Shown here: in pieces, positions 982 to 17,675 of the stretch
Numbering within the stretch: position 1 is the stretch's first letter
How the letters are laid out: each line of letters opens with the position of its first letter
Assembly: GCA_965237935.1 (NCBI GenBank)
Contig: CBDEGW010000004.1
Coordinates: 93,340 to 157,339 of the forward strand
Direction of reading: 5' to 3'
Source of the DNA: Dehalococcoidia bacterium
Lineage (GTDB): Bacteria > Chloroflexota > Dehalococcoidia > Lucifugimonadales > CBDEGW01
DNA: 64,000 nucleotides
Notes under the pieces: model-generated
The model's database searches: none
What the model saw: only the letters and a program-made list of their open reading frames with translations
Told to the model about the DNA's origin: nothing
Translations under genes and position numbers: made by a program

Positions 982-1386
982 ATGAATGAGCGGGATGTGG
1001 ACGGCAACGGGAGCGTGGACGCGGAGAGGCTTCGGCGGCTCAGGCTGAGCGAGTTCCTGCGGGACCTGGTTCGGCAGGAGGGCAAGATGGAGGCCGCCGA
1101 GCTGCTGGGGGTCAACCACAAGACCCTGACGCGGGCCGAGGAGTCGGGTGAGATCACGGGGCGCATGGGCGATGCGCTGGAGCGTCTGCTCGTGCTGGAG
1201 CTGGCTATGCTGGAGGAGCACGGGCTGACCCTGCCCCCGGAGACCCAGGCCCTGCGGGGCTTCGGACGCAAGGGTCAGATCAACCATCGCTGGAAGGCGC
1301 TGGCCGACACTCGGGTGGCGCTGAGGAAGCGGAAGCTGCTGCGCTGGGTGCGGACGGTCCTCACCCTGTGGCTGTGGCGGAAGTAG
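982..1386 (+). CDS. Hypothetical protein with N-terminal HTH-like segment (putative regulator)
   Basis: GAGGAGG RBS; EAAELLGVNHKTLTRAE resembles a helix-turn-helix. Confidence 0.65.
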   Translation: MNERDVDGNGSVDAERLRRLRLSEFLRDLVRQEGKMEAAELLGVNHKTLTRAEESGEITGRMGDALERLLVLELAMLEEHGLTLPPETQALRGFGRKGQINHRWKALADTRVALRKRKLLRWVRTVLTLWLWRK

Positions 1387-1409
1387 GCCCCGGAGCCGTC
1401 TCCGGGGCC
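1386..1409 (+). terminator. GC hairpin after the HTH gene, probable terminator
   Basis: GGCCCCGGAG-CCGT-CTCCGGGGCC followed by GGTTTT. Confidence 0.55.
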
Positions 1410-2143
1410 GGTTTTCGGCGGTTGCTACATCGGAGCGAAGTGGGCGCTAAATCGGTGCGAGCAATTTAGGTTGCGTTGGGCCGAAACAGGGTTTTGGGCC
1501 TTCCATTCGCTCGGTTGTTCGGGCGATAATTGACGCAGTTTCTGGCTTTTTCCAGTGTTTCCTGCCTAGAAACCTGGAGGATTCCCGTCCCCCGAATCCG
1601 GGACCGGCTGCATAGGATCGAGCCTTGCTCTCCGAACAGCCACCCAGGGGTCAAACCGGAAGGATTGAGCCTCGCTCTCCCGAAGGCCGCCCCGGAGGAC
1701 ACATTCGCAGCGGTTGGAGCGTCTCTCGCTTCGGCCCCTCGGACACCCTGGTCGGAGTGCGCCCTGCACACTGGCCGGTTCCTCGCGTCTGCGGCATGGT
1801 TCCTGTGGAACTGGTCGCAGCTTCACCACGCGCCGGTCTGCCATTGCAAGCTGGCTGGCCGCTTCCCTCGCGCAGCATCCCAGGACGTTACCGACGTAGC
1901 TCCCGGGTCTCGCTGCGTCTCTCACCGGGCCGTTCTGTGGTTGATCCGCAGGCCGGTCGGTTCTCCCCCACTTCATAGCAGCTCCCCCTGAGTCCGTTCC
2001 TCTGAGTTGACTCTGGGCCGAGCTGCGTCTTCTTTCAACACGGCGTCTCCCTCGTTCGGCTCACTGTCGGACTGCTGGCGTCGTCGGCACGGCAACACGG
2101 ATTCAACGGCAACGGCATGAGATTCAGCAAGGAGGTAGCACAC

Positions 2144-2665
2144 ATGGACAGGCAAGTTGGTCGGTATCAGAAGGGCGAACGGCAGGTGATCGGCGACCGC
2201 GTGGTCCTCAACCCACGGACCCGCCTCTGCTCCCTGCGAGACGCCGAGGGCAACGTCTTCGACACGTTCAGGTTGTCTCTCGAGGTCTGCGGCTGCGGGT
2301 ATTCCTTCGCGCGGGCGGGGGTGGGCTACAGAGGCTCGGACGGCTGGTACTGCAAGAGATGCGGGCAGCTGCACACATTGGACGCGAAGCAATCCGCGAG
2401 CGACCCGACCCGCCTGAAGCCCGATTCATCGCGGGTAAGAGAGTTCGACGTGGGCATCCGGGTATCCCCCGACTGGTCCACGCCCAGCGACCTGGAGGCC
2501 GGCATGGGTCAACAACGGAAAGGAGGCGTCAATGCACGTCAAGGAACTGGTTCCAAAGGTCAAGGGACTCGCGGTCAAGGCGGGCGGATTCATGCGGCGG
2601 CGCAAGCGGTTGACGATAGCGGTCGTGGTCGCGGCGCTGCTGCTCGGGCCGCTCGTGACGACTGA
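2144..2665 (+). CDS. Hypothetical Cys-containing (Zn-finger-like) protein
   Basis: AAGGAGG RBS before ATG 2144; CGC and CKRC motifs; 3' end overlaps the next gene so the true end is uncertain. Confidence 0.55.
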   Translation: MDRQVGRYQKGERQVIGDRVVLNPRTRLCSLRDAEGNVFDTFRLSLEVCGCGYSFARAGVGYRGSDGWYCKRCGQLHTLDAKQSASDPTRLKPDSSRVREFDVGIRVSPDWSTPSDLEAGMGQQRKGGVNARQGTGSKGQGTRGQGGRIHAAAQAVDDSGRGRGAAARAARDD

Positions 2666-2921
2666 CGGCGAGCTGGTCTTCCTGAACGCGGTCGGCCTCG
2701 GCCTCGGTGCGCTGCTGCTCAGGCGGTTCATCAAGCCCGGAGGCAGGCGGCGAACGGGACGGACGCAACAGGCACAACGGCAACCGAAGGCAAAGGCAAC
2801 ACAACACGAAGGAGGACACGATGACGACGCAAGCAACGACGATTGGTGGGACTGGGACAAGGCCACGGCCAAGCCTCGAAGAGCTGGTCGACCGGCTGAT
2901 GGCGGCGCTGTTCAGGGCTGA
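2532..2921 (+). CDS. Hypothetical membrane protein (2 TM)
   Basis: AAAGGAGG RBS; hydrophobic LTIAVVVAALLLGPLV and VFLNAVGLGLGALLL. Confidence 0.6.
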   Translation: MHVKELVPKVKGLAVKAGGFMRRRKRLTIAVVVAALLLGPLVTTDGELVFLNAVGLGLGALLLRRFIKPGGRRRTGRTQQAQRQPKAKATQHEGGHDDDASNDDWWDWDKATAKPRRAGRPADGGAVQG

Positions 2922-3285
2922 GCCGGAGACGGCGCCGAAGACGGAAACCCCCAGCGTGGCCCGCAGCGTCCACGAGGCGCGGCGGCTGCGGCAGGCGGGA
3001 GACCTCGACGGGGCGCTGGCGGTCTTCGCCGGCGTGGACACGGCAAGGGCGGAGACCAGGGAGGCTCGGTGGGCCTACGCCGAGTGGACGGACCTGGCGC
3101 GGAGGCGCTTCGGCGACCGGGACGCGCTGGTCTACAGCCAGGGCGCGGGACGGGCCGCCGCCCTGGTTCCCAGGGGCGACGGGACGCTTGAGGTCGCGGC
3201 GGCGCTGGGGATGCGCTGGGAGCCGGGCAAGGCCGTCTCGCGGCGAAGCCTGCGGGGTCTGCGGCCCCTGAGCGGGGGTGCGTGA
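2821..3285 (+). CDS. Hypothetical protein
   Basis: AAGGAGG RBS before ATG 2821; stop overlaps the primase start (GTGA). Confidence 0.7.
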   Translation: MTTQATTIGGTGTRPRPSLEELVDRLMAALFRAEPETAPKTETPSVARSVHEARRLRQAGDLDGALAVFAGVDTARAETREARWAYAEWTDLARRRFGDRDALVYSQGAGRAAALVPRGDGTLEVAAALGMRWEPGKAVSRRSLRGLRPLSGGA

Positions 3286-4334
3286 TGGTCGTAGCCAACG
3301 CCTCCGTTGACATCCCGGCGCTGAAGGCCCGTCACCCCCTGGGGGACACGGTTGAGGCGTCGGGGGTGCGGCTCAGGGGAAGGGGCAGGGTCCGCCAGGG
3401 CGGCTGTCCCTTCCACGACGAGATTGAGGGCAGCTTCACGGTGTACGCCGATTCTGAACGCTGGTACTGCTTCGGCTGCGGCTTGGGCGGCGACGTGCTG
3501 GACTTCATCCGGCGGGTCGAGAACCTGAGCCTGCCCGATGCGATCAAGCGGCTGGACGGCGGCCCAGGGCTTGCTGCCGGGGCCGCCCCTCGTCCGGTTT
3601 CGGCCAGGCGTCCCGGGGCAAGCCCGTTGCCCCCACGGGACCCGGCCCTGCTGACGGCGGCGGTCCGGTTCTACGCCGGGCAGCTCCGGCGCAGCCCGGC
3701 GGCAAGGGAGTACCTGGCCTCGCGGGGCGTCGCTCTTGACGCCTCCTTGCATCTCGGCCTCGGCTACTCGCCGGGGAGCGGGCTGCGGGAGGCCCTTGTG
3801 TCGGACGGCTTCAATGCCGGACGGCTCAGGGACTGCGGGCTGTTCACCGAGCGCGGTGAGCGGTTCGCAGGGATGGTGGTCATTCCCGACGCCTCCGGCG
3901 GTCTTGTCCGCTGGCTTGTCGGGCGGGCCATAGACCCCGACCGGACGCCCCGGTTCCAGGCGCTTCCCGGCTCCAAGCCGGTGCTTGGGCTTGGGCGTCT
4001 CGGCCCCGCGCCGCCCTTCGCGGTCGTGGCCGAGGGCGTCTTCGACTGGCTTGCCCTTGCGCAGTGGGGCGTCCCCGGCGTCGCTGCCCTGGGCACCCAG
4101 GGGGTCGAGAAGGTGGCGGAGGGCTTGCGGGGCTGCCCCCGGGTCTTCCTCGCCTTCGACTCGGACGACGCTGGACTTGAGGCCACGGAGCGGCTTGCGG
4201 GCTTGCTTGGACGCAGGGCCGCCGCCGTCACCCTTCCCCAGGGCGTCGGCGACGTGGCCGACCTTGCGGCCCTTCCCCACGGCCGCGCCGTCTTCCTCCG
4301 CCTGCTGGCTCAGGCGGCACGCTCCGCCCGCTAG
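3282..4334 (+). CDS. DnaG-like primase (CHC2 zinc finger + TOPRIM)
   Basis: CPFH...WYCFGC zinc finger; VAEGVFD and AFDSDDAG TOPRIM motifs. Confidence 0.9.
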   Translation: MMVVANASVDIPALKARHPLGDTVEASGVRLRGRGRVRQGGCPFHDEIEGSFTVYADSERWYCFGCGLGGDVLDFIRRVENLSLPDAIKRLDGGPGLAAGAAPRPVSARRPGASPLPPRDPALLTAAVRFYAGQLRRSPAAREYLASRGVALDASLHLGLGYSPGSGLREALVSDGFNAGRLRDCGLFTERGERFAGMVVIPDASGGLVRWLVGRAIDPDRTPRFQALPGSKPVLGLGRLGPAPPFAVVAEGVFDWLALAQWGVPGVAALGTQGVEKVAEGLRGCPRVFLAFDSDDAGLEATERLAGLLGRRAAAVTLPQGVGDVADLAALPHGRAVFLRLLAQAARSAR

Positions 4335-4562
4335 CGGCTTCTTCCCAGCTTCCCACTCCCCCGGACCACTTCCCCTCTACCGGAGCTTGACCCGCTCTGG
4401 CCTTGCTTGCGGGACTCCCTCCCGCTCCACCCCATCCCCACTCTCACCGCCCAGGAGGACCTATGCCCAATTCACGACGGGCCTTGCCCGCGCACGGCCT
4501 CCCGTAGGGGAGTCCGCACCGGCCATTCGCTACAGGAACGACACCACAAGAAGGAGACAGAC

Positions 4563-9522: not shown

Positions 9523-10152
9523 ATGCTCGCAACTCACACCATCGACCCCGAAGACCTCTACACCATCACGTCAGGCGGCTTCAGCGCCACCGCCGACGCC
9601 TTCGCCCGCGACGACAACACCGACGGCCTCTGGTTCGTCTCGATGGTCGGCTCCCAGACGGCGCTCAAGGCGATCTGGGCCTCGCTCCTCAAGCAGCCCC
9701 CCGACACCGCCCACATCATCCGTGGCGCGGACGGCATGGCGCTCTCGGGCGGCTACCAGCGGTGCCAGATTCCCTACGAGACCATCGGGACGTGGACGAC
9801 CAAGATCGCCCGCCTGCCGGTGTCGGGAGGCTGGCACGCCCTCGTGTACACCAAAACCGCCGAGTACGGATTCGAAAAGGGCAGCTTCCTCCTGCTGGCG
9901 CAGGCCGAGGATGAGGCCCCCGCGCTGCACCACCGCTTCCTGGACAAGCGCAGCCCGCTCCCCCTGCACGGCTCCTGGGCGGACTGGCTCTGGCGGCGGG
10001 GCCTGGACAACGGGGAGATAGTCCCCCTCCAGTCCGTCGGCGTCTCCGCCTACAGGTGCTCCCCCAAGGCCGACAAGCTCCGGGAAGACCTCTCCGACGC
10101 CGTGGCGTCGGGCTGGCTCACCCTGCCCACTGAGGAGGTTTCCGATGGATAG
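9523..10152 (+). CDS. Hypothetical protein
   Basis: AAAGGAG RBS; 209-aa globular-looking ORF coupled to the next gene. Confidence 0.75.
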   Translation: MLATHTIDPEDLYTITSGGFSATADAFARDDNTDGLWFVSMVGSQTALKAIWASLLKQPPDTAHIIRGADGMALSGGYQRCQIPYETIGTWTTKIARLPVSGGWHALVYTKTAEYGFEKGSFLLLAQAEDEAPALHHRFLDKRSPLPLHGSWADWLWRRGLDNGEIVPLQSVGVSAYRCSPKADKLREDLSDAVASGWLTLPTEEVSDG

Positions 10153-10552
10153 GACGCTGAAGACGGCCAAGCGCAAGAACAAGCGCAGGCAGAACCGGAA
10201 CGGGAGCGCCTGGCGGCGCTTCTCCCCGGACGGGACGACCTGCCGCTACTGCAAGCACGACCACACCACGCACCTGACAAGCTCAGGCCAACCCCACTTC
10301 TACCGGCCCGCCACGGAAGCGGAGAAGCGCGACCCCTCGGTCATGTTCTACCGCCACACCCTGGCCCAGGGCGGCTCCGTGCTGGTGCGGCGGATGGTCG
10401 TCGCCAACCACGCCGAGCTCGTCACCGCCTTCTGCACCGCCTGCGCGGAGAGCATCGGGACTCACCAAGTCCTCTGCTACCAGCGCAACGTGGGCGTCGG
10501 AGAGGTGGTCGGGGTGCAGACCGGCCACAGGGACATGGCAATCGCCGCCTGA
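10145..10552 (+). CDS. Hypothetical Cys/His-rich protein
   Basis: GAGGAGG RBS; CRYCKH and CTAC motifs. Confidence 0.7.
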   Translation: MDRTLKTAKRKNKRRQNRNGSAWRRFSPDGTTCRYCKHDHTTHLTSSGQPHFYRPATEAEKRDPSVMFYRHTLAQGGSVLVRRMVVANHAELVTAFCTACAESIGTHQVLCYQRNVGVGEVVGVQTGHRDMAIAA

Positions 10553-10855: not shown

Positions 10856-13800
10856 GACTTGCAGCACAGGCAAAAGGCGGGTTTTACCCCACGCCGGAGC
10901 GGGTCGTCGACCTGCTCGCGGAGCTGATTCACACCCCCACCGGCTACTACCACAGGGACCGGGAGACGCTGCGCATCCTCGACCCCTGCTGCGGGGCTGG
11001 GGAGGCGCTGGCGCAGCTGGCCGAGCGCATGGACGCGCCCAACGCCATCCCCATCGAGACCTACGGCGTCGAGCTGCACCGGGACCGGGCGGAGGAGGCG
11101 GAGAAGCGGCTCGGGCGCGCCCTGGCCTCGGACCTGTTCGCCACGTCCGTAGCGAACGGGGCCTTCGGGCTGCTCCTTTTGAATCCGCCGTATGACCATG
11201 ACTCGGAAGACAAGCGGACGGAGCACGCCTTCCTGACCCAGACCACGCGCTACCTGGCCGAGGGCGGGCTGCTGGTGTTCATCGTCCCCAGACAGCGCCT
11301 CGCGGTCTCGGCCCGCTACCTCTCCACCCACTACGGGCGGATGCGCTGCTGGGCGTGCGCCGCTTAACGCGGTATAGAATCCCCGACTCAATCGGGAGAA
11401 ACTCGGAGTACGTTTCTGGGTCAACCAACCTACCTCAAGGCGAAAGCCAAGGGGGAAAACAGCATGTTGGTAAAGCGGCTACGGTCTGAAAGCGTTGTAA
11501 GACCGGTTCCGCAAGACCCGCGCTATATGGTGAAAGCTACACTGCCTGAACCTCAGTATCCGATCGGAGATTAGCGCCTCCCTCTGGTATAACGCTTGAA
11601 ACCCAGAGCCACTCATTACCTCAAGTTGGGTCCAGCCTTGCTGTAACTCCGATGAGTGGGCGTTGGCCAATGAGGCCAGTTAAGGGTACGAACGAGGCAC
11701 CTAAGTAGCGCTATCACGTTCTATACCGACGGAATGCGGGATTCCCTAATGGGGGCGACCCCTATGGGAACGGAGCCACCGTAGTAGTCCGAGGACGGGA
11801 AAGCCGTCCACATGGCGAAGGGTGGCAGGTGTCAATCGAGACTCAGAAAAGGAGGTGCGCGAGATGCGCAACGCCGAAACCATACTGGGAATCATTCGCA
11901 ACAGAGGTACACGGGGACTGCCCGTGAACGACCTTTACCGCCAACTCTGGAACCCGAACCCGTACCTGATGGCCTACGGGCGCATCGCCAAGAACGACGG
12001 CGCGCTCACCCCAGGCGCAACACCGGAAACCGCAGACGGGACGAAGATGGACGACATCCACGCGATCATCGAGGCCCTCCGCTTCGAGCGCCACCGATGG
12101 ACTCCGGCCCGCCGCGTATACATCCCGAAAGCCAACGGGAAGCGGCGGCCACTCGGACTCCCCGCGTGGTCGGACAAGCTGCTGCAAGAAGTGATGCGTC
12201 TCCTATTGGAGGCGTACTACGAACCGCAGTTCAGCGACCGGTCGCACGGCTTCCGGCCCAACCGTGGATGCCACACGGCCTTCACGGAGATAACCCGCAC
12301 CTGGACGGGCACAACATGGTTCATCGAAGGAGATATCGCCGGTTGCTTCGACAACATCGACCATAAGGTGTTGATGGAAATACTTGGTGAGAACATCCAG
12401 GACAACCGCTTCCTGCGGCTCGTCTCCAATCTCCTCCGGGCTGGCTACCTTGAGGACTGGAAGCTCAACGCCACCTACAGTGGCACCCCGCAGGGGGGTG
12501 TGGTGAGTCCCATACTCGCCAACGTCTACCTAGACCGGTTGGACAGGTTCGTGGAGGGAGTGCTTTTGCCCGATTACAACCGTGGCATGAAGCGGAAGCG
12601 CAACCAAGAGTACCAAAGGTTGGAAAGCAGGGCCAGATACTTTCTGAGTGCTGGACGTGGCAAAGAGGCGGCGGCTCTCCGCCCCCTCATGCGGTCGTTG
12701 CCTGCCAACGACACCCACGACCCTGCCTACCGCCGCCTGCGGTACATACGGTACCCCGACGACTTCCTGCTCGGCTTTGCGGGGCCAAAGGATGAGGCCG
12801 ATGAGATCAAGGCTAGGATAGGTATGTTCCTGCGAGATAATCTCAAGCTGGAGCTATCCGACGCCAAAACCCTGGTCACCCACGGCCGAACCCAAGCAGC
12901 ACGGTTCCTCGGCTATGAGGTCGTCGTTCAAGGGAACGACACCAAGCTCGACGCCAGTGGCCGTCGGTCGGTCAACGGCATCATCGGGCTGCGCGTTCCA
13001 CAAGACGTAGTACGCGCCAAGAGCGCCGCATACATGCGAGACGGCAAACCGCAGCAACGCGGGGAACGGCTTCACGACTCGCCATACAGCATCGTGGAGC
13101 AATACCAGGCGGAGTTCCGGGGCGTCGTCAACTACTACCGGCGTGCAACCAACCTGAGCGCACTGAACCATCTACGCTGGGTCATGGAAATGTCTCTCGC
13201 CAAGACGCTTGCAAGCAAGCTGAAGATCAGCGTCTCGCAGGTGTTCAAGCGGTACAAGACCACGATTCAGACGGACAACGGGCCTCGCAAGGTCTTGATG
13301 GTGAAGGTGGACGAGCCGGGCAAAAAGCCGCTGGTGACGTACTGGGGCGGCGTTTCGCTTGCGCGGGACAACACGGCAACCCTGATCGACAAACACCCCC
13401 CGATACTCAACGGTCGGACGGAACTCGTGCAGCGCCTGCTGGCCGACACCTGCGAGCTTTGCGGCTCAACGGTCAAGGTACAGGTGCACCACATACGAGC
13501 AATGAAAGACCTGCGAAAGAAAGGGCGGGCCGAACGGCCCGCTTGGGTGGAGATGATGGCACAGCGGCGTCGAAAGACGCTCGTGGTCTGTGCGCCATGC
13601 CATGCGGACATCCATGCCGGACGACCGCTGAAGCAGATTGCACAGGCAGCCTAAGTATCCACGTTGCAAAGGTCGGTAGTGTCTCAACAGTGTTACACTA
13701 GGGATGACAGGCAAGACATGCATCGTATAAGCCGGAAACTGGTCAAGATCGGCATCATCCTTGTGGCCATCGGTGTCACAATGGCGCTGCTGTGTGGCCT

Positions 13801-14664
13801 GTCCGGTGGTGTGCTCTGGGCGGTAGGTGGACGTGACCACGTAAGCGACAGCGGTGTCAGATACATGCTGGTGGTCGCCTACATATCGTTTTACGCCTGC
13901 CTTGTTGCCAGTCTTGTCACCCTCGCCGGAGGCGTCGGCGCCGGTGCGCTTGGTTTGACGCTGAAGGGTGTTGTCCTAGGTACGGCATACTTCCATAGGC
14001 CCTAGACACTATCCACCACTTACGACACTAGAGAGCCGGATGCGGTGAAAGCCGCACGTCCGGTTCGGAAGGGGGCCGACGGAAAAGTGCTCCGGTAACA
14101 CGGGGTAACTCGCCGGCGGCCTACCTTACCTTCCCGCACCCGGAGCGCGAGGTCTTCGACCAGGTGGTGTTGATGGGCTACCGGAAGGCCGACCCCGTTC
14201 CCGACGCCCACGGCGAGAGCATGGTGCTGGAGTGGGCGGTGGGTGAGCCGGAGCCGATGCGCCCCGAACAGTACCCGCCGTTCACCCCGAAGACCACGCC
14301 GAGCGGCGACATCCTGTTCACCACCCGCACCGTCGATCCCGTCGCGGCTGCTGCTGAGGCGCGGCGGTCGGGGCTGTGGACGAGCACGGAGATAACCGAC
14401 ACCCTCTGGCCCGCCAGGGACACCCGCACCCGCCCGCTGATGCCCCTGCGAAGGGGACACATGGCGATGCTGGTGGCGGCGGGCTTCCTCGACAACCTCT
14501 GCCTGGAGGCGGAGGGGCGGCGCATCCTGGTCAAGGGCCGCACCAGCAAGGAGATGGTCATGGTGGAGGACAGCCCCGAGAAGGAGGTCCACCGGGAGAA
14601 GCTCAAGACCACGGTGGTCGCCCTGGACCTCAACGGCGGAGAGATCACCGACATCGCAGCATAG
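10852..14664 (+). CDS. SAM-dependent DNA methyltransferase (DUF6094-like), split by a group II intron; exons 10852-11354 and 14130-14664, 345 aa spliced
   Basis: FYPTP, LDPCCGAGE, NPPY motifs; joining the exons (503+535 nt) gives in-frame RCWA-FPHPEREVFDQVVL. Confidence 0.9.
11864..13654 (+). CDS. ltrA: Intron-encoded reverse transcriptase/maturase with C-terminal HNH endonuclease
   Basis: KRRPLG, GTPQGGVVSPILANVYL, YIRYPDD (variant of YADD), CELC..VHH...CAPCHADIH; AGGAGG RBS at 11864. Confidence 0.92.
   Translation: MRNAETILGIIRNRGTRGLPVNDLYRQLWNPNPYLMAYGRIAKNDGALTPGATPETADGTKMDDIHAIIEALRFERHRWTPARRVYIPKANGKRRPLGLPAWSDKLLQEVMRLLLEAYYEPQFSDRSHGFRPNRGCHTAFTEITRTWTGTTWFIEGDIAGCFDNIDHKVLMEILGENIQDNRFLRLVSNLLRAGYLEDWKLNATYSGTPQGGVVSPILANVYLDRLDRFVEGVLLPDYNRGMKRKRNQEYQRLESRARYFLSAGRGKEAAALRPLMRSLPANDTHDPAYRRLRYIRYPDDFLLGFAGPKDEADEIKARIGMFLRDNLKLELSDAKTLVTHGRTQAARFLGYEVVVQGNDTKLDASGRRSVNGIIGLRVPQDVVRAKSAAYMRDGKPQQRGERLHDSPYSIVEQYQAEFRGVVNYYRRATNLSALNHLRWVMEMSLAKTLASKLKISVSQVFKRYKTTIQTDNGPRKVLMVKVDEPGKKPLVTYWGGVSLARDNTATLIDKHPPILNGRTELVQRLLADTCELCGSTVKVQVHHIRAMKDLRKKGRAERPAWVEMMAQRRRKTLVVCAPCHADIHAGRPLKQIAQAA
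13718..14005 (+). CDS. Passenger small membrane protein inside intron domain IV
   Basis: 95-aa ORF with 2-3 hydrophobic helices between the IEP stop and domain V. Confidence 0.55.
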   Translation: MHRISRKLVKIGIILVAIGVTMALLCGLSGGVLWAVGGRDHVSDSGVRYMLVVAYISFYACLVASLVTLAGGVGAGALGLTLKGVVLGTAYFHRP

Positions 14665-15070: not shown

Positions 15071-16441
15071 ATGAACCTCGGACAGTTCATCGACACATTC
15101 AAGGACGCCATCGCCCAGCGGGTGGTGGCGTCCTACCCGCCCCTCTACAGGCCCTCGGAGAACGGCCACAGGCTCCCCCGCCTGCTCCGCAAGCCCCTGG
15201 GGGCGCAGGCCGACGCCATACGGGGCGCGGCCCTCTCCCTCGAAGCCCACCGGGGCACCACCGTCGTCGGCGAGATGGGCACCGGCAAGACCTTCATCGC
15301 CGCCGCCGCCGCACATGGCGGGCTTCAAGCGGGTCCTGGTCCTCTGCCCGCCCCACCTGGTGCCCAAGTGGAAGCGGGAGGTGGAGATGACGGTGCCCGG
15401 CGCCCGCGCCGTCATCGTCAAGTCCATCACCGACCTGGAGCGGCTGCGCATCTCCGCCGGCTCCGGCCCCCTCTTCGCGGTGATGAGCCGTGAGAAGGCC
15501 AAGCTGTCCTACCGCTGGATGCCCGCCGTGATACAGCGGTGGGCTGTGTCCAAGGGCAGTTTGTTGCGGGACGAGGAGACGGGCGAGCCGTTCCGGGTTC
15601 CCTGATGCCCCGACTGCACGGCTCAGATCGTGGACAAGGACGGCGTTCCCCTCACCGACGAGGACCTGAACCGCAGGAAGCACACTTGCGCCAACTGCGG
15701 CTCCCCCCTCTGGCAGGCCGACAAGTCCGGCCCCGCCCGCTACCCTCTGGCCGACTACGTGAAGCACCACATGAAGGGGTTCTTCGACCTGCTGGTCGGG
15801 GACGAGGTGCACGAGTACAAGGGAAGAGGCTCGGCCCAGGGCATCGCCGCCGGAGTCCTAGCCGACGTCTGCGGCAAGTCCCTCAGCCTGAGTGGAACCC
15901 TCATGGGAGGGTATAGCTCGACGCTCTTCCACCTGCTCTACCGGTTCTCGCCTGAGATCAGGACGGAGTTCGGGCGCTCCGACGAGCACCGCTGGATTCA
16001 GCGATACGGCTTCGAGGAGCACACCGTCGGCAAGACGGACGACGAGGCGGTGGAGGACGGGCGCAACAGCAGACGGCGCAAGTACCGCAAGGTGGTCAGG
16101 GAGCGGCCGGGACTGGTGCCCAGCGCCCTCTTCCACATCATCGGCAACACCGTCTTCCTGCGCCTCGCCGACGTGGCCTCGGGCCTGCCCCCCTACGAGG
16201 AGCAGGTGATGCTCTCCTCGATGGACTCGGAGGAGGATGCGACGGGCTACTCCCAGCGCAGCGCCTACAACACCGTGTACGAGGAGCTGCGGCTGAAGCT
16301 GGCTGAGGCTCTCAAGGCTGGCTCGAAGCGGCTGCTGGCGACCTACCTGCAAACCCTGTTGGCCTACCCTGACGGCTGCACCAGGGGGGAGACGGTCTTC
16401 GACCCCAGGAGCGGGGACGTGATCGTGCAGGTGCCGCCCCT
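15071..16441 (+). pseudogene. SF2 (SNF2/DEAD-like) helicase pseudogene
   Basis: GEMGTGKT and DEVHE motifs; 2-bp deletion near 15314, in-frame TGA at 15603-05, 3' end cut by IS3. Confidence 0.85.
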
Positions 16442-16458
16442 TAAGGTGGACCCCATTA

Positions 16459-17394
16459 TTAAGACAGCACGAGGGCTAAATTAAGAGAGTCTCCCACCCC
16501 TGCGCTAGGTTTCACCAAGCCCGATGGCAGCCCTGCTTCTTCAGCTGCTGCTCCCCTTTCTTCCTGGCCATGTTGGTACACCTCTGCTGGGGTCCGGTAG
16601 CCCAAAGCCTGGTGAGGCCTCTGCCGGTTGTAGAACTCCAGGTAGGCATTGATCCCAGTTCGGGCCTCGGCGACGGTCTGGTAAGCTTTCAGATACACCT
16701 CCTCGTACTTGATGCTCCGCCACAGCCGCTCCACGAAGATGTTGTCCAGGTACCTACCCTTACCATCCATGCTGACCTGGACCCTCTGCTCCTGCAACGT
16801 CTGGGTAAAGGCCTCACTGGTGAACTGACTCCCTTGGTCGGTGTTGAATATCTCCGGTCGTCCCTTACCCAGGGCTTCCTCCAACGCCGCCACGCAGAAG
16901 CTGGTGTCCATGGTGTTGGAGAGCTTCCAGGCCAGCACGTGCCGGCTGTGCCAGTCCATGATGGCCACCAGGTACAGGAAGCCCTTCGCCATGGGGATGT
17001 AGGTGATGTCCGCGGCCCAGACCTGGTCGACCCGATTAACCTCCACTCCCTTCAGCAGATAGGGAAAGATCCGGTGTCCCGGCGCTGGTTTGCTGGTGTT
17101 GGGACGCCGGTAGATCGCTTCCAGACCCATCAACCGCATCAGCCTTCGAACCCTTTTTCGGCTCACCAGATAGCCCTGTTGCAGCAGCCAGGCCTTCATC
17201 TTCCTGGAGCCGTAGAAGGGGGTCTTCAAATACTGACGGTCCATCAGGGCCATCAACTCCAGGTCTTCTGCCCTGGTCGGTACCGGCCGGTAGTACACCG
17301 AGGCCCGGCTGACGTCCAGCAGGATACATTGACGCACCAAAGACAGCTGCTGGTGGTCTCGGTCTATCATGGCTCGCCGTATGCTGCGACTCAT
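16459..17394 (-). CDS. IS3 transposase OrfB (DDE integrase core)
   Basis: [32 protein letters not shown]. Confidence 0.95.
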
Positions 17395-17675
17395 AGACCG
17401 GACCTTTCCGACAAAAAATCGCGTTCCACCTTCAGCTGGCCGATGTGCCGGTAGAGGTGGTTAATCTGAGCTTCCTTGGCTTTCTCCTGGGATTTCTGAT
17501 TGGTGGCAAATAGCTCCGGGGCTCCTTCCACCAGGGCCCTTTTCCAGGCGTGAATCTGACTGGGATGGACCTCAAATCGGCTGGCCAGCTGGGCGATGGT
17601 CTCTTCCCCCGCAAGGGCGGCCAGGGCCACCTTGGCCTTGAACGCCGGACTGTGCTTATTCCTCGTCTGCTTCAT
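17391..17675 (-). CDS. IS3 transposase OrfA (HTH)
   Basis: [15 protein letters not shown]...[11 protein letters not shown]. Confidence 0.92.

Follow-up and report, generated by a model that had tools for sequence, protein, structure and literature searches.

Bacterial group II introns are regarded, to our knowledge, as selfish elements which carry nothing beyond their own reverse transcriptase (RT). The locus described here raises the question of whether some of them also carry other genes. It is found in a stretch of 64,000 nt (the window) from a Dehalococcoidia bacterium (GenBank assembly GCA_965237935.1, contig CBDEGW010000004.1, positions 93,340 to 157,339 of the forward strand). In a group II intron of this window, 378 nt separate the stop codon of the intron-encoded protein (IEP), at 13654, from the domain V helix, which begins at 14033. 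A previous reading of the letters alone (the original prediction) had described this spacer as an insert with a passenger gene, a 95-codon open reading frame (ORF) with its ATG at 13718 and a stop ending at 14005. The spacer length and the coordinates of the ORF are correct. After comparison with related introns, we consider it probable that the 378-nt stretch is a cargo module, placed in a dedicated stem-loop of domain IV of an intact and mobile LtrA-type intron.

Cargo modules in sibling introns

We have scanned one genome per species with the IEP. About 25 loci were detected, with IEPs 83–99% identical, all of them in metagenome-assembled genomes (MAGs) of Dehalococcoidia or Chloroflexota. 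The co-occurring taxa and the isolate names suggest that these MAGs come from sponge or coral holobionts. In 21 siblings the spacer has either 29–31 nt or 374–790 nt, and there are six unrelated inserts:

Slot empty, 29–31 nt: L003, L014, L016
Cargo A, the ORF of the window, 376–382 nt: L001, L005, L011
Cargo B, 129-aa protein, DUF3224 (7e-41), 528 nt: L002
Cargo C, lipoprotein with collagen-like repeats, minus strand, 502–611 nt: L004, L006, L046
Cargo D, lipoprotein, DUF6174 (1.6e-29), 719–790 nt: L007–L010, L015, L040
Cargo E, 107-aa membrane protein, 496 nt: L012
Cargo F, membrane protein, minus strand, 374 nt: L013

Sibling introns with and without an insert, which the original prediction had proposed to look for, do exist (275–931 nt and 29–31 nt, including the census given below). 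That prediction treated the insert as a single event; instead, the conserved slot accommodates many alternative modules, of which this is one. If the part between the repeats described below is removed from the window intron, 24 nt are left; the cargo-free siblings have 29–31 nt. More distant relatives (L017, Caldilineaceae, and cyanobacteria) have spacers of 7–16 nt, which indicates that the short spacer is ancestral. The first bases of the module, positions 13655–13670, resemble a remnant of this ancestral spacer. Some cyanobacterial relatives seemed to have spacers of 0.6–1.5 kb. These were discarded: The domain V of a neighbouring intron had been mistaken for their own, and the true spacers are 7–9 nt long.

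A wider census was made by searching genome contigs for the conserved junction GACACYRGA-GAGCCGGATG, with at least 123 matches. The C-terminus of an IEP is found upstream in at least 73 of the matches listed. Among these 73, the spacer has 31 nt or less in 25 cases and 275–931 nt (median 584) in 48 cases, and no spacer between 31 and 275 nt is found. Another clade of IEPs, with about 53% identity in the C-terminal 250 residues, is also represented in the long-spacer set of the matches listed. All long-spacer loci listed with a taxon (L313–L351 left out) belong to Dehalococcoidia, with the exception of one Caldilineaceae. Genomes from outside the Chloroflexota, as well as three other Chloroflexota, only have short spacers in the listed matches with an IEP upstream.

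The listed matches add further types of cargo: a 198-aa lipoprotein (11 loci), a 150-aa multi-pass membrane protein (4), a 155-aa lipoprotein (3), an HNH nuclease (1.2e-13), a minus-strand DUF805 protein (5.7e-14), and a DUF4377 lipoprotein (1.2e-11). At least about 13 cargo families are present at two or more loci or have a Pfam match, and about 10 more are singletons. A hydrophobic segment is found in 38 of the 48 long-spacer cargos listed, a figure which is only indicative, as the choice of ORF was biased to hydrophobic ones. Comparison of all these loci shows that the slot either has about 30 nt and no cargo, or contains one of many modules which are unrelated to each other and apparently have a single gene each. 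No sibling was detected in the PLSDB plasmids by distant blastn with the whole intron, only Streptomyces and Rhodococcus introns about 65% identical, and a scan of JGI metagenomes with the IEP gave nothing above 66% identity.

Some modules have other peculiarities. L313 has as its cargo (nt 145–645 of the spacer) a free-standing HNH endonuclease whose C-terminal tail is hydrophobic; the IEP of this intron already has an HNH domain. In cargo C, the GPQ collagen-like triplets vary between near-identical genes (L004, L006, L046), which code for 118, 142, and 154 aa. In cargo D, L010 and L015 differ in the copy number of a tandem repeat (consensus NADPEAVLARAQ), giving 195 and 210 aa. A cargo C intron, in L044 (4602–6964), has a minus-strand ORF of 468 aa within the 3' part of the IEP gene, and its apparent spacer is 2363 nt. 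This ORF looks like a transposase.

Structure of the window intron

The following features have been identified in the window, all of them on the plus strand:

11349–11354: intron-binding site 1 (IBS1) CTGGGC, last 6 nt of the 5' exon (pairs with EBS1, covariation)
11355–14129: complete group II intron (Rfam RF00029, sibling alignment, exon frame)
11630–11635: exon-binding site 1 (EBS1) GTCCAG, domain I (complementary to CTGGGC)
11828–11833: 5' strand of the domain IV basal helix, GGTGTC (pairs with 14024–14029)
11864–13654 (TAA): IEP, 596 aa, RT, maturase, and HNH (Pfam, LtrA match)
13655–13670: leader GTATCCACGTTGCAAA (likeness to the start of cargo-free spacers and to other cargo leaders)
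13671–13684: 5' arm of the cargo hairpin, GGTCGGTAGTGTCT (repeat search, 14 nt, 86% complementary)
13685–13717: 5' untranslated region of the cargo, with an AGG like a Shine-Dalgarno (SD) sequence (read from the sequence)
13718–14005: cargo A gene, 95 aa (protein family, in-frame indels)
14004–14017: 3' arm of the cargo hairpin, AGACACTATCCACC, overlapping the cargo stop codon (repeat search)
14018–14032: trailer, 3' strand of the domain IV helix, GACACT (14024–14029), and junction with domain V
14033–14129: domain V (14033–14066), followed by domain VI (Rfam alignment)
14130–14664: 3' exon of the interrupted gene of the methyltransferase family (in frame with the 5' exon)

The ends of this intron, which has 2775 nt, were set by alignment to the sibling introns. 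It starts with GTGCG at 11355 and finishes with ...CCTACCTTAC (...TTAC, last base 14129), in agreement with the consensus (5' GUGYG, 3' AY); the siblings have the same boundaries. The Rfam model RF00029 (Intron_gpII, domains V and VI) matches 14031–14129 with 65.7 bits, for a gathering score of 40. When 11354 is joined to 14130, a single uninterrupted host frame is obtained (...RMRCWAFPHPEREVFDQVVLMGY / ...RMRCWAFPHPEREV...). The 5' exon product matches Pfam DUF6094 (6e-22), an N6 DNA methyltransferase, and the homing target is ...GCGCTGCTGGGC/CTTCCCGCAC, where the slash is the insertion point.

The IEP contains RVT_1 (3.7e-29), Intron_maturas2 (2.1e-14), and AI2M-like HNH (9.3e-13) Pfam domains. 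The closest solved structure is LtrA of Ll.LtrB, matched in its full length (E 9.8e-114). EBS1 and IBS1 are complementary, with one G-U pair. EBS1, at about position 276 of the intron, covaries with the exon in the window and in six other lineages (IBS1/EBS1 pairs in siblings: CCTGTC/GACAGG, GTAGAC/GTCTAC, CGTGGC/GCCACG, ACTTCA/TGAAGT). The basal helix of domain IV is GGTGGT/ACCACT in the outgroup L017, a compensatory change, and compensatory variants are also found among siblings in the apical stem of domain V. All siblings have GACACYRGA immediately 5' of domain V.

Neighbouring genes code for a DnaG-like primase and a Rad52-family protein, followed by ordinary metabolic genes, so the host locus resembles an integrated mobile element. 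All the hallmarks of a mobile group II intron which are open to sequence tests are present. By these features, we take the window intron to be intact and to occupy its cognate site in the methyltransferase gene of an integrated mobile element.

The cargo hairpin

The original prediction had suggested that an 8-bp inverted repeat, TAGTGTCT (13677–13684) and AGACACTA (14004–14011), loops the insert out of the ribozyme. Its arms are indeed complementary at these positions, and the repeat can be extended to 14 nt with 86% complementarity (13671–13684 with 14004–14017). It is the longest one in the region, and all cargo-bearing siblings share it, either in sequence or in the ability to pair. The leader pairs with the trailer in every cargo type. 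The arms are GGTAGTGTC/GACACTACC in A1, B, D, and E, TAGGTGGTGA/TCACCACTTA in A2, ACTTGAC/GTCAAGT plus GGGA/TCCC in C, and GTCGGTA/TACCGAC in F. The core GGTAGTGTC is kept in both IEP clades and around cargo of either strand, including the minus-strand DUF805. This stem would close each module off from the ribozyme core.

The arms resemble the basal helix of domain IV (GGTGTC/GACACT), and GACACTA is present twice, 19 nt apart. The A2 arms, in turn, are similar to the GGTGGT/ACCACT helix of L017. This suggests, without proving it, that the module represents another domain IV, nested next to the first. When RNAalifold is applied to six cargo-A spacers, the closing helix is recovered and the SD region is predicted to pair with the 3' end of the ORF; the covariation term (+1.43 kcal/mol) gives little support to this fold.

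A 7-bp direct repeat, TATCCAC, had been described as bracketing the insert. It is present at 13656–13662 and 14010–14016, but it is not above chance and is not a signature of insertion: The same 406 nt contain six direct repeats of at least 7 nt. We have rejected it as a target-site duplication, as the left copy is 8 nt away from the left arm and the right copy is inside the right arm.

Probable mobility and exchange of modules

A case of mobility is given by L007 and L040, two introns with DUF6174 cargo. They show 3 differences in 3119 nt (99.9% identity), while their flanks are unrelated, and the L040 exon, a non-cognate IBS1, matches EBS1 only partly. We infer from this that a cargo-bearing intron was inserted ectopically. 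Other pairs also have introns more similar than their flanks: 99.94% against 85–88% for L007 and L008, and 99.64% against 84–89% for the window and L001. By these comparisons, intron and cargo appear to move together as one retroelement. The proposal that the retroelement acts as a cargo vector is thus supported by near-identical cargo-bearing introns at different sites.

IEP lineages track the homing site, and the genes which contain these sites are neighbours in the same host element. Three sibling homing sites are unoccupied in the window, in ORFs 9523–10152, 10145–10552, and 15630–16484; they read GGWHALVY/TKTAEYGF, MDR/TLK, and GTLMGG/YSSTLFHLLYRF. To judge from these sites, this intron family has several targets within the host element.

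Modules do not stay with one lineage. The window, with cargo A, and L002, with DUF3224, have IEP genes 99.6% identical and domains V and VI 97.9% identical, and they are wholly different from the base after the IEP stop to the base before domain V. Similarly, the IEP genes of L011 (cargo A) and L012 (cargo E) are 97.2% identical. Cargo A and cargo D have each been found at three homing sites and cargo C at two, and the sub-types of A cross lineages. Over the final 150 nt of the IEP gene the identity is lower, and the variants of the domain V stem are independent of the IEP lineage, which fits recombination in the 3' part of the intron. L016 contains a chimera (1369–4505), whose 5' exon and first 264 nt belong to the site-2 lineage and whose 3' part and 3' exon belong to site 3. 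There are about 1.4 kb of further sequence between both parts, and the host element DNA which separates the two sites elsewhere, about 6 kb, is missing. Therefore, DNA-level recombination between introns occurs in these genomes. To judge from these comparisons, modules have probably passed from one intron lineage to another when introns recombined in their 3' part, with copy-choice recombination by the RT as an alternative route.

The position of the cargo may be significant. Since reverse transcription would start at the 3' end of the intron, a gene adjoining domains V and VI is the likeliest to arrive, and it would be delivered even in incomplete copies; 5' truncation is the product to be expected when reverse transcription from this end is incomplete. 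Plus-strand cargo may be translated from the precursor or from the excised intron RNA by means of its own SD-like site. Cargo A might act for the host, or for the element, in the manner of phage morons or transposon cargo.

A broader possibility, which we put forward only tentatively, is a system of modular retro-delivery. The conserved hairpin slot would be a cassette site, with a dedicated route for taking up and exchanging cassettes: A domain IV inside domain IV would be acquired through template switching of the RT, its arms being copied from the basal helix. These introns would seed genes for envelope proteins both as spliceable and as 5'-truncated copies, as a retroelement counterpart of the integron. 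We find this full scheme less likely than not to be correct.

Cargo genes in intron remnants

Cargo genes are also found apart from full introns. Copies of DUF3224 (71–96% identical) are present at 67 loci in Chloroflexota MAGs, and only one of them has a full IEP. The other loci retain the last IEP codons, the arms, or domains V and VI. In some cases only the final 15 nt or so of the intron are left, joined to the cargo stop by a CTCGC microhomology. In L169, L171, L173, L176, L177, and L183, the DUF3224 stop directly adjoins CTCGCC-GGCGGCCTACCTTAC, with which domain VI ends. These junctions have the appearance of a deletion between two CTCGC motifs which took place more than once, with loss of the trailer, domain V, and the greater part of domain VI.

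Other remnants have lost the 5' part. L232 has cargo, trailer, and domains V and VI at a homing site, with no intron sequence upstream. In L353 and L354 (3345–4371), the most distant cargo-A homologue starts 18 nt past the peptidyl-tRNA hydrolase gene (pth), and is directly followed by AGACACTGGA, domain V, and domain VI. Both are located where a suf (iron-sulfur cluster) operon ends, and the homologue could be expressed by read-through from this housekeeping operon. In L238, L270, and L309, a DUF6174 module is joined to the first 150 nt of the intron. As far as these comparisons go, they show cargo genes which stay intact after decay of the intron or after a 5'-truncated insertion.

The cargo A gene

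The cargo A protein has two long hydrophobic helices with basic ends and a variable connecting loop. AlphaFold2 places the helices at residues 3–38 and 45–92 (pLDDT 67, pTM 0.36). In a search of 5.8 billion proteins we have found 14 intact clusters, 46–99% identical, plus one frameshifted copy. A profile search of 1.84 billion representatives only gave seven related proteins, so the family is very narrow. Its distant members (about 35–45% identity) keep the basic N-terminus, the two helices, and the motifs LCGL and LAGGxG...GLxLK.

The original prediction could have been refuted by lack of conservation of the ORF. In fact, it stays open in relatives down to about 40% identity, with in-frame indels only: In a codon-unaware DNA alignment, the 16 gap runs within the ORF are all multiples of three. 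In the same alignment, frame 1 is open in every copy, and the other sense frames have 1–7 stops; one antisense frame is also nearly open. The pN/pS ratio is 0.51 in the first helix, 1.17 in the loop and the start of the second helix, and 0.66 in the C-terminal part. We read cargo A as a real gene, in which the helices appear to be under weak purifying selection and the loop to be evolving fast, or diversifying, with a possible constraint from RNA structure.

The ATG is preceded, with 6 nt in between, by an SD-like AGG, and the siblings have GAGGGG or AGGT at an equal distance. No sigma-70-like promoter was found in 13500–14200. Every cargo-A context examined adjoins the 3' end of an intron. 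Full introns with cargo A are found in the window, L001, L005, L011, L080, L081, and L352, and L082 is at a contig end. Our guess is that cargo A codes for an envelope protein with an exposed, fast-evolving loop, which might benefit the host or the element that carries it.

Alternative explanations

Several observations weigh against the interpretation of the spacer as a cargo gene in a mobile intron. The evidence for a cargo system is comparative, and most of it comes from MAGs. Three kinds of module (the collagen-repeat lipoprotein, DUF805, and type F) are on the minus strand, so they could not be expressed from the intron RNA, and promoter scans of these modules gave none or one weak match, none of them convincing. 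For the 95-aa protein itself, to which the original prediction had tentatively given an exclusion, toxin, or defence role, PADLOC and PHROGs have no match with E ≤ 0.01, and the only Pfam hit is Prominin, with an E of 0.81. Leaders form no more pairs with their own trailers than with mismatched ones (17.25 and 17.0 cross pairs); the arms share one sequence, and, because they are conserved as such, this comparison is uninformative as a test of covariation. The pairwise dN/dS of the whole ORF is 0.6–1.25, which is not decisive as a coding test, and variable columns are evenly distributed over the codon positions (40/40/43), with no excess in the third one. The constraint on the protein is therefore weak, or it is overlaid by constraint on the RNA structure or by diversifying selection.

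These last figures would also be expected if the ORF were untranslated and the insert were a non-coding expansion of domain IV, whose open frame is a by-product of a structured RNA rich in G+C. The extensive pairing predicted by RNAalifold in the insert, which includes the SD region with the 3' end of the ORF, and the nearly open antisense frame also agree with this. Nevertheless, we consider it very improbable. The 16 gap runs all keep the frame, only one sense frame is open throughout, the two-helix pattern and both motifs persist at about 35–45% identity, and the sister modules in the same slot are Pfam-verified genes. The covariation term, moreover, does not support the predicted fold.

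The module might instead be an independent small DNA cassette, similar to a miniature inverted-repeat transposable element (MITE) or to an integron cassette, with GGTAGTGTC/GACACTACC as recombination sites and the intron as a passive landing pad. We regard this as unlikely, although it would explain why the arms are conserved in sequence over many cargo types, two IEP clades, and both cargo orientations. The absence of cargo-less hairpins among the matches listed (no spacer of 31–275 nt) and the cassettes themselves, which are single, small, and often promoterless, as in integrons, also speak for it. On the other hand, types C and F have different arm sequences, the arms resemble the basal helix of the intron's own domain IV, and, among the copies examined, all those of cargo A and most of DUF3224 adjoin an intron or its remnants. 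There is no GTTRRRY-type core site at the module boundaries, as judged by eye, and the direct repeat overlaps the right arm and is not adjacent to the left one. No integrase is found among the 10 window ORFs scanned, with no search for integrases in the surroundings. As a MITE or insertion sequence the module was rejected: Its inverted repeats are not directly flanked by a target-site duplication, and no transposase ORF is found in the window.

Finally, the insert could be what remains of a nested intron (a twintron), or of another retroelement which invaded domain IV. Nested introns are known in domain IV of introns from archaea and cyanobacteria, and several related introns crowd the same host element. 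We have rejected this origin as extremely improbable: The window contains a single Rfam domain V, and positions 13655–14032 contain no RT, no ribozyme-like segment, and no similarity to introns outside the arms.

Comparison with known systems

The introns described here share many features with those of the Ll.LtrB (mitochondrial-like) type: the ribozyme domains, the 5' GUGCG, an IEP with RT, maturase, and HNH domains, EBS1-IBS1 targeting, and residence in genes of conjugative or integrated elements. The difference is that known Ll.LtrB-type introns only have the IEP in domain IV, whereas this clade adds a variable gene in a hairpin of its own. Gene delivery by group II introns, with cargo in domain IV (targetrons), is a laboratory invention, limited in cargo size. 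Engineered Ll.LtrB targetrons resemble these introns in having a foreign gene in a domain IV loop (domain IVb in their case), delivered by retrohoming. Unlike them, with an IEP which is usually external, the introns found here are natural, keep their IEP, and carry many different modules in wild populations. The modules found, 275–931 nt among the matches listed, are below the limit of about 1 kb for engineered cargo. In L. lactis, retrohoming of Ll.LtrB is lost when the cargo in domain IVb is longer than about 1 kb (PMC8524655, citing Plante and Cousineau 2006). A design like that of the targetrons appears to have arisen in nature in this clade, with a hairpin slot, cargo of less than about 1 kb, interchangeable genes, spread between genomes, and cargo which remains once its vehicle has decayed.

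Other systems show partial similarities. Eukaryotic retrotransposons without long terminal repeats (non-LTR) are thought to descend from group II introns. Those of the LINE type (long interspersed nuclear elements) also start reverse transcription at the 3' end and deliver what is near it, and the 5'-truncated copies found here keep cargo and domains V and VI. Unlike LINE 3' transduction, however, the cargo is inside the element, and the element is a ribozyme able to splice from host genes. Integron cassettes and phage morons have in common with these modules a fixed slot and interchangeable, small, single genes, often promoterless and often coding for envelope proteins; in integron cassettes, inverted repeats also bound each module. 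In contrast to integrons, there are no attC core sites by eye, no integrase is found among the scanned ORFs, and each element carries one cassette. The vehicle is a retroelement, with exchange apparently taking place by recombination between introns. Organellar introns with non-RT ORFs (LAGLIDADG, in fungal mitochondria) and twintrons also demonstrate that domain IV tolerates foreign coding sequence. Their ORFs take the place of the IEP or are part of another mobile element, and have a function in mobility; unlike in these cases, the IEP is retained here and the extra genes are unrelated to mobility.

In the literature, we have not come across natural cargo other than the IEP in group II introns of bacteria, although our coverage is incomplete and an earlier mention is possible. 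If our interpretation is correct, retroelements are a further route by which genes flow horizontally in bacteria, comparable to the transduction of genes by eukaryotic non-LTR retrotransposons. A closing helix and a position beside domain V would then be natural answers to the problem of cargo tolerance in targetrons. The cargo consists almost entirely of genes for membrane proteins and lipoproteins in symbiont-type Chloroflexota, which points to a selectable trait of the cell surface.

Other observations

The Stigonema and Scytonema loci (L018–L022, L036, L039) have an IEP match of about 2530 nt for about 590 residues. About 750 nt are inserted in the IEP coding region, possibly as a nested intron. 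A second intron is found close downstream in these loci.

Downstream of the methyltransferase gene, the window contains a helicase-like region (15071–17454) split over overlapping frames: 15071–15493, 15315–15605, 15630–16484, and 16570–17454. The pieces tested have no Pfam match. The split could be due to frameshifts, to assembly errors, or to a decaying gene.

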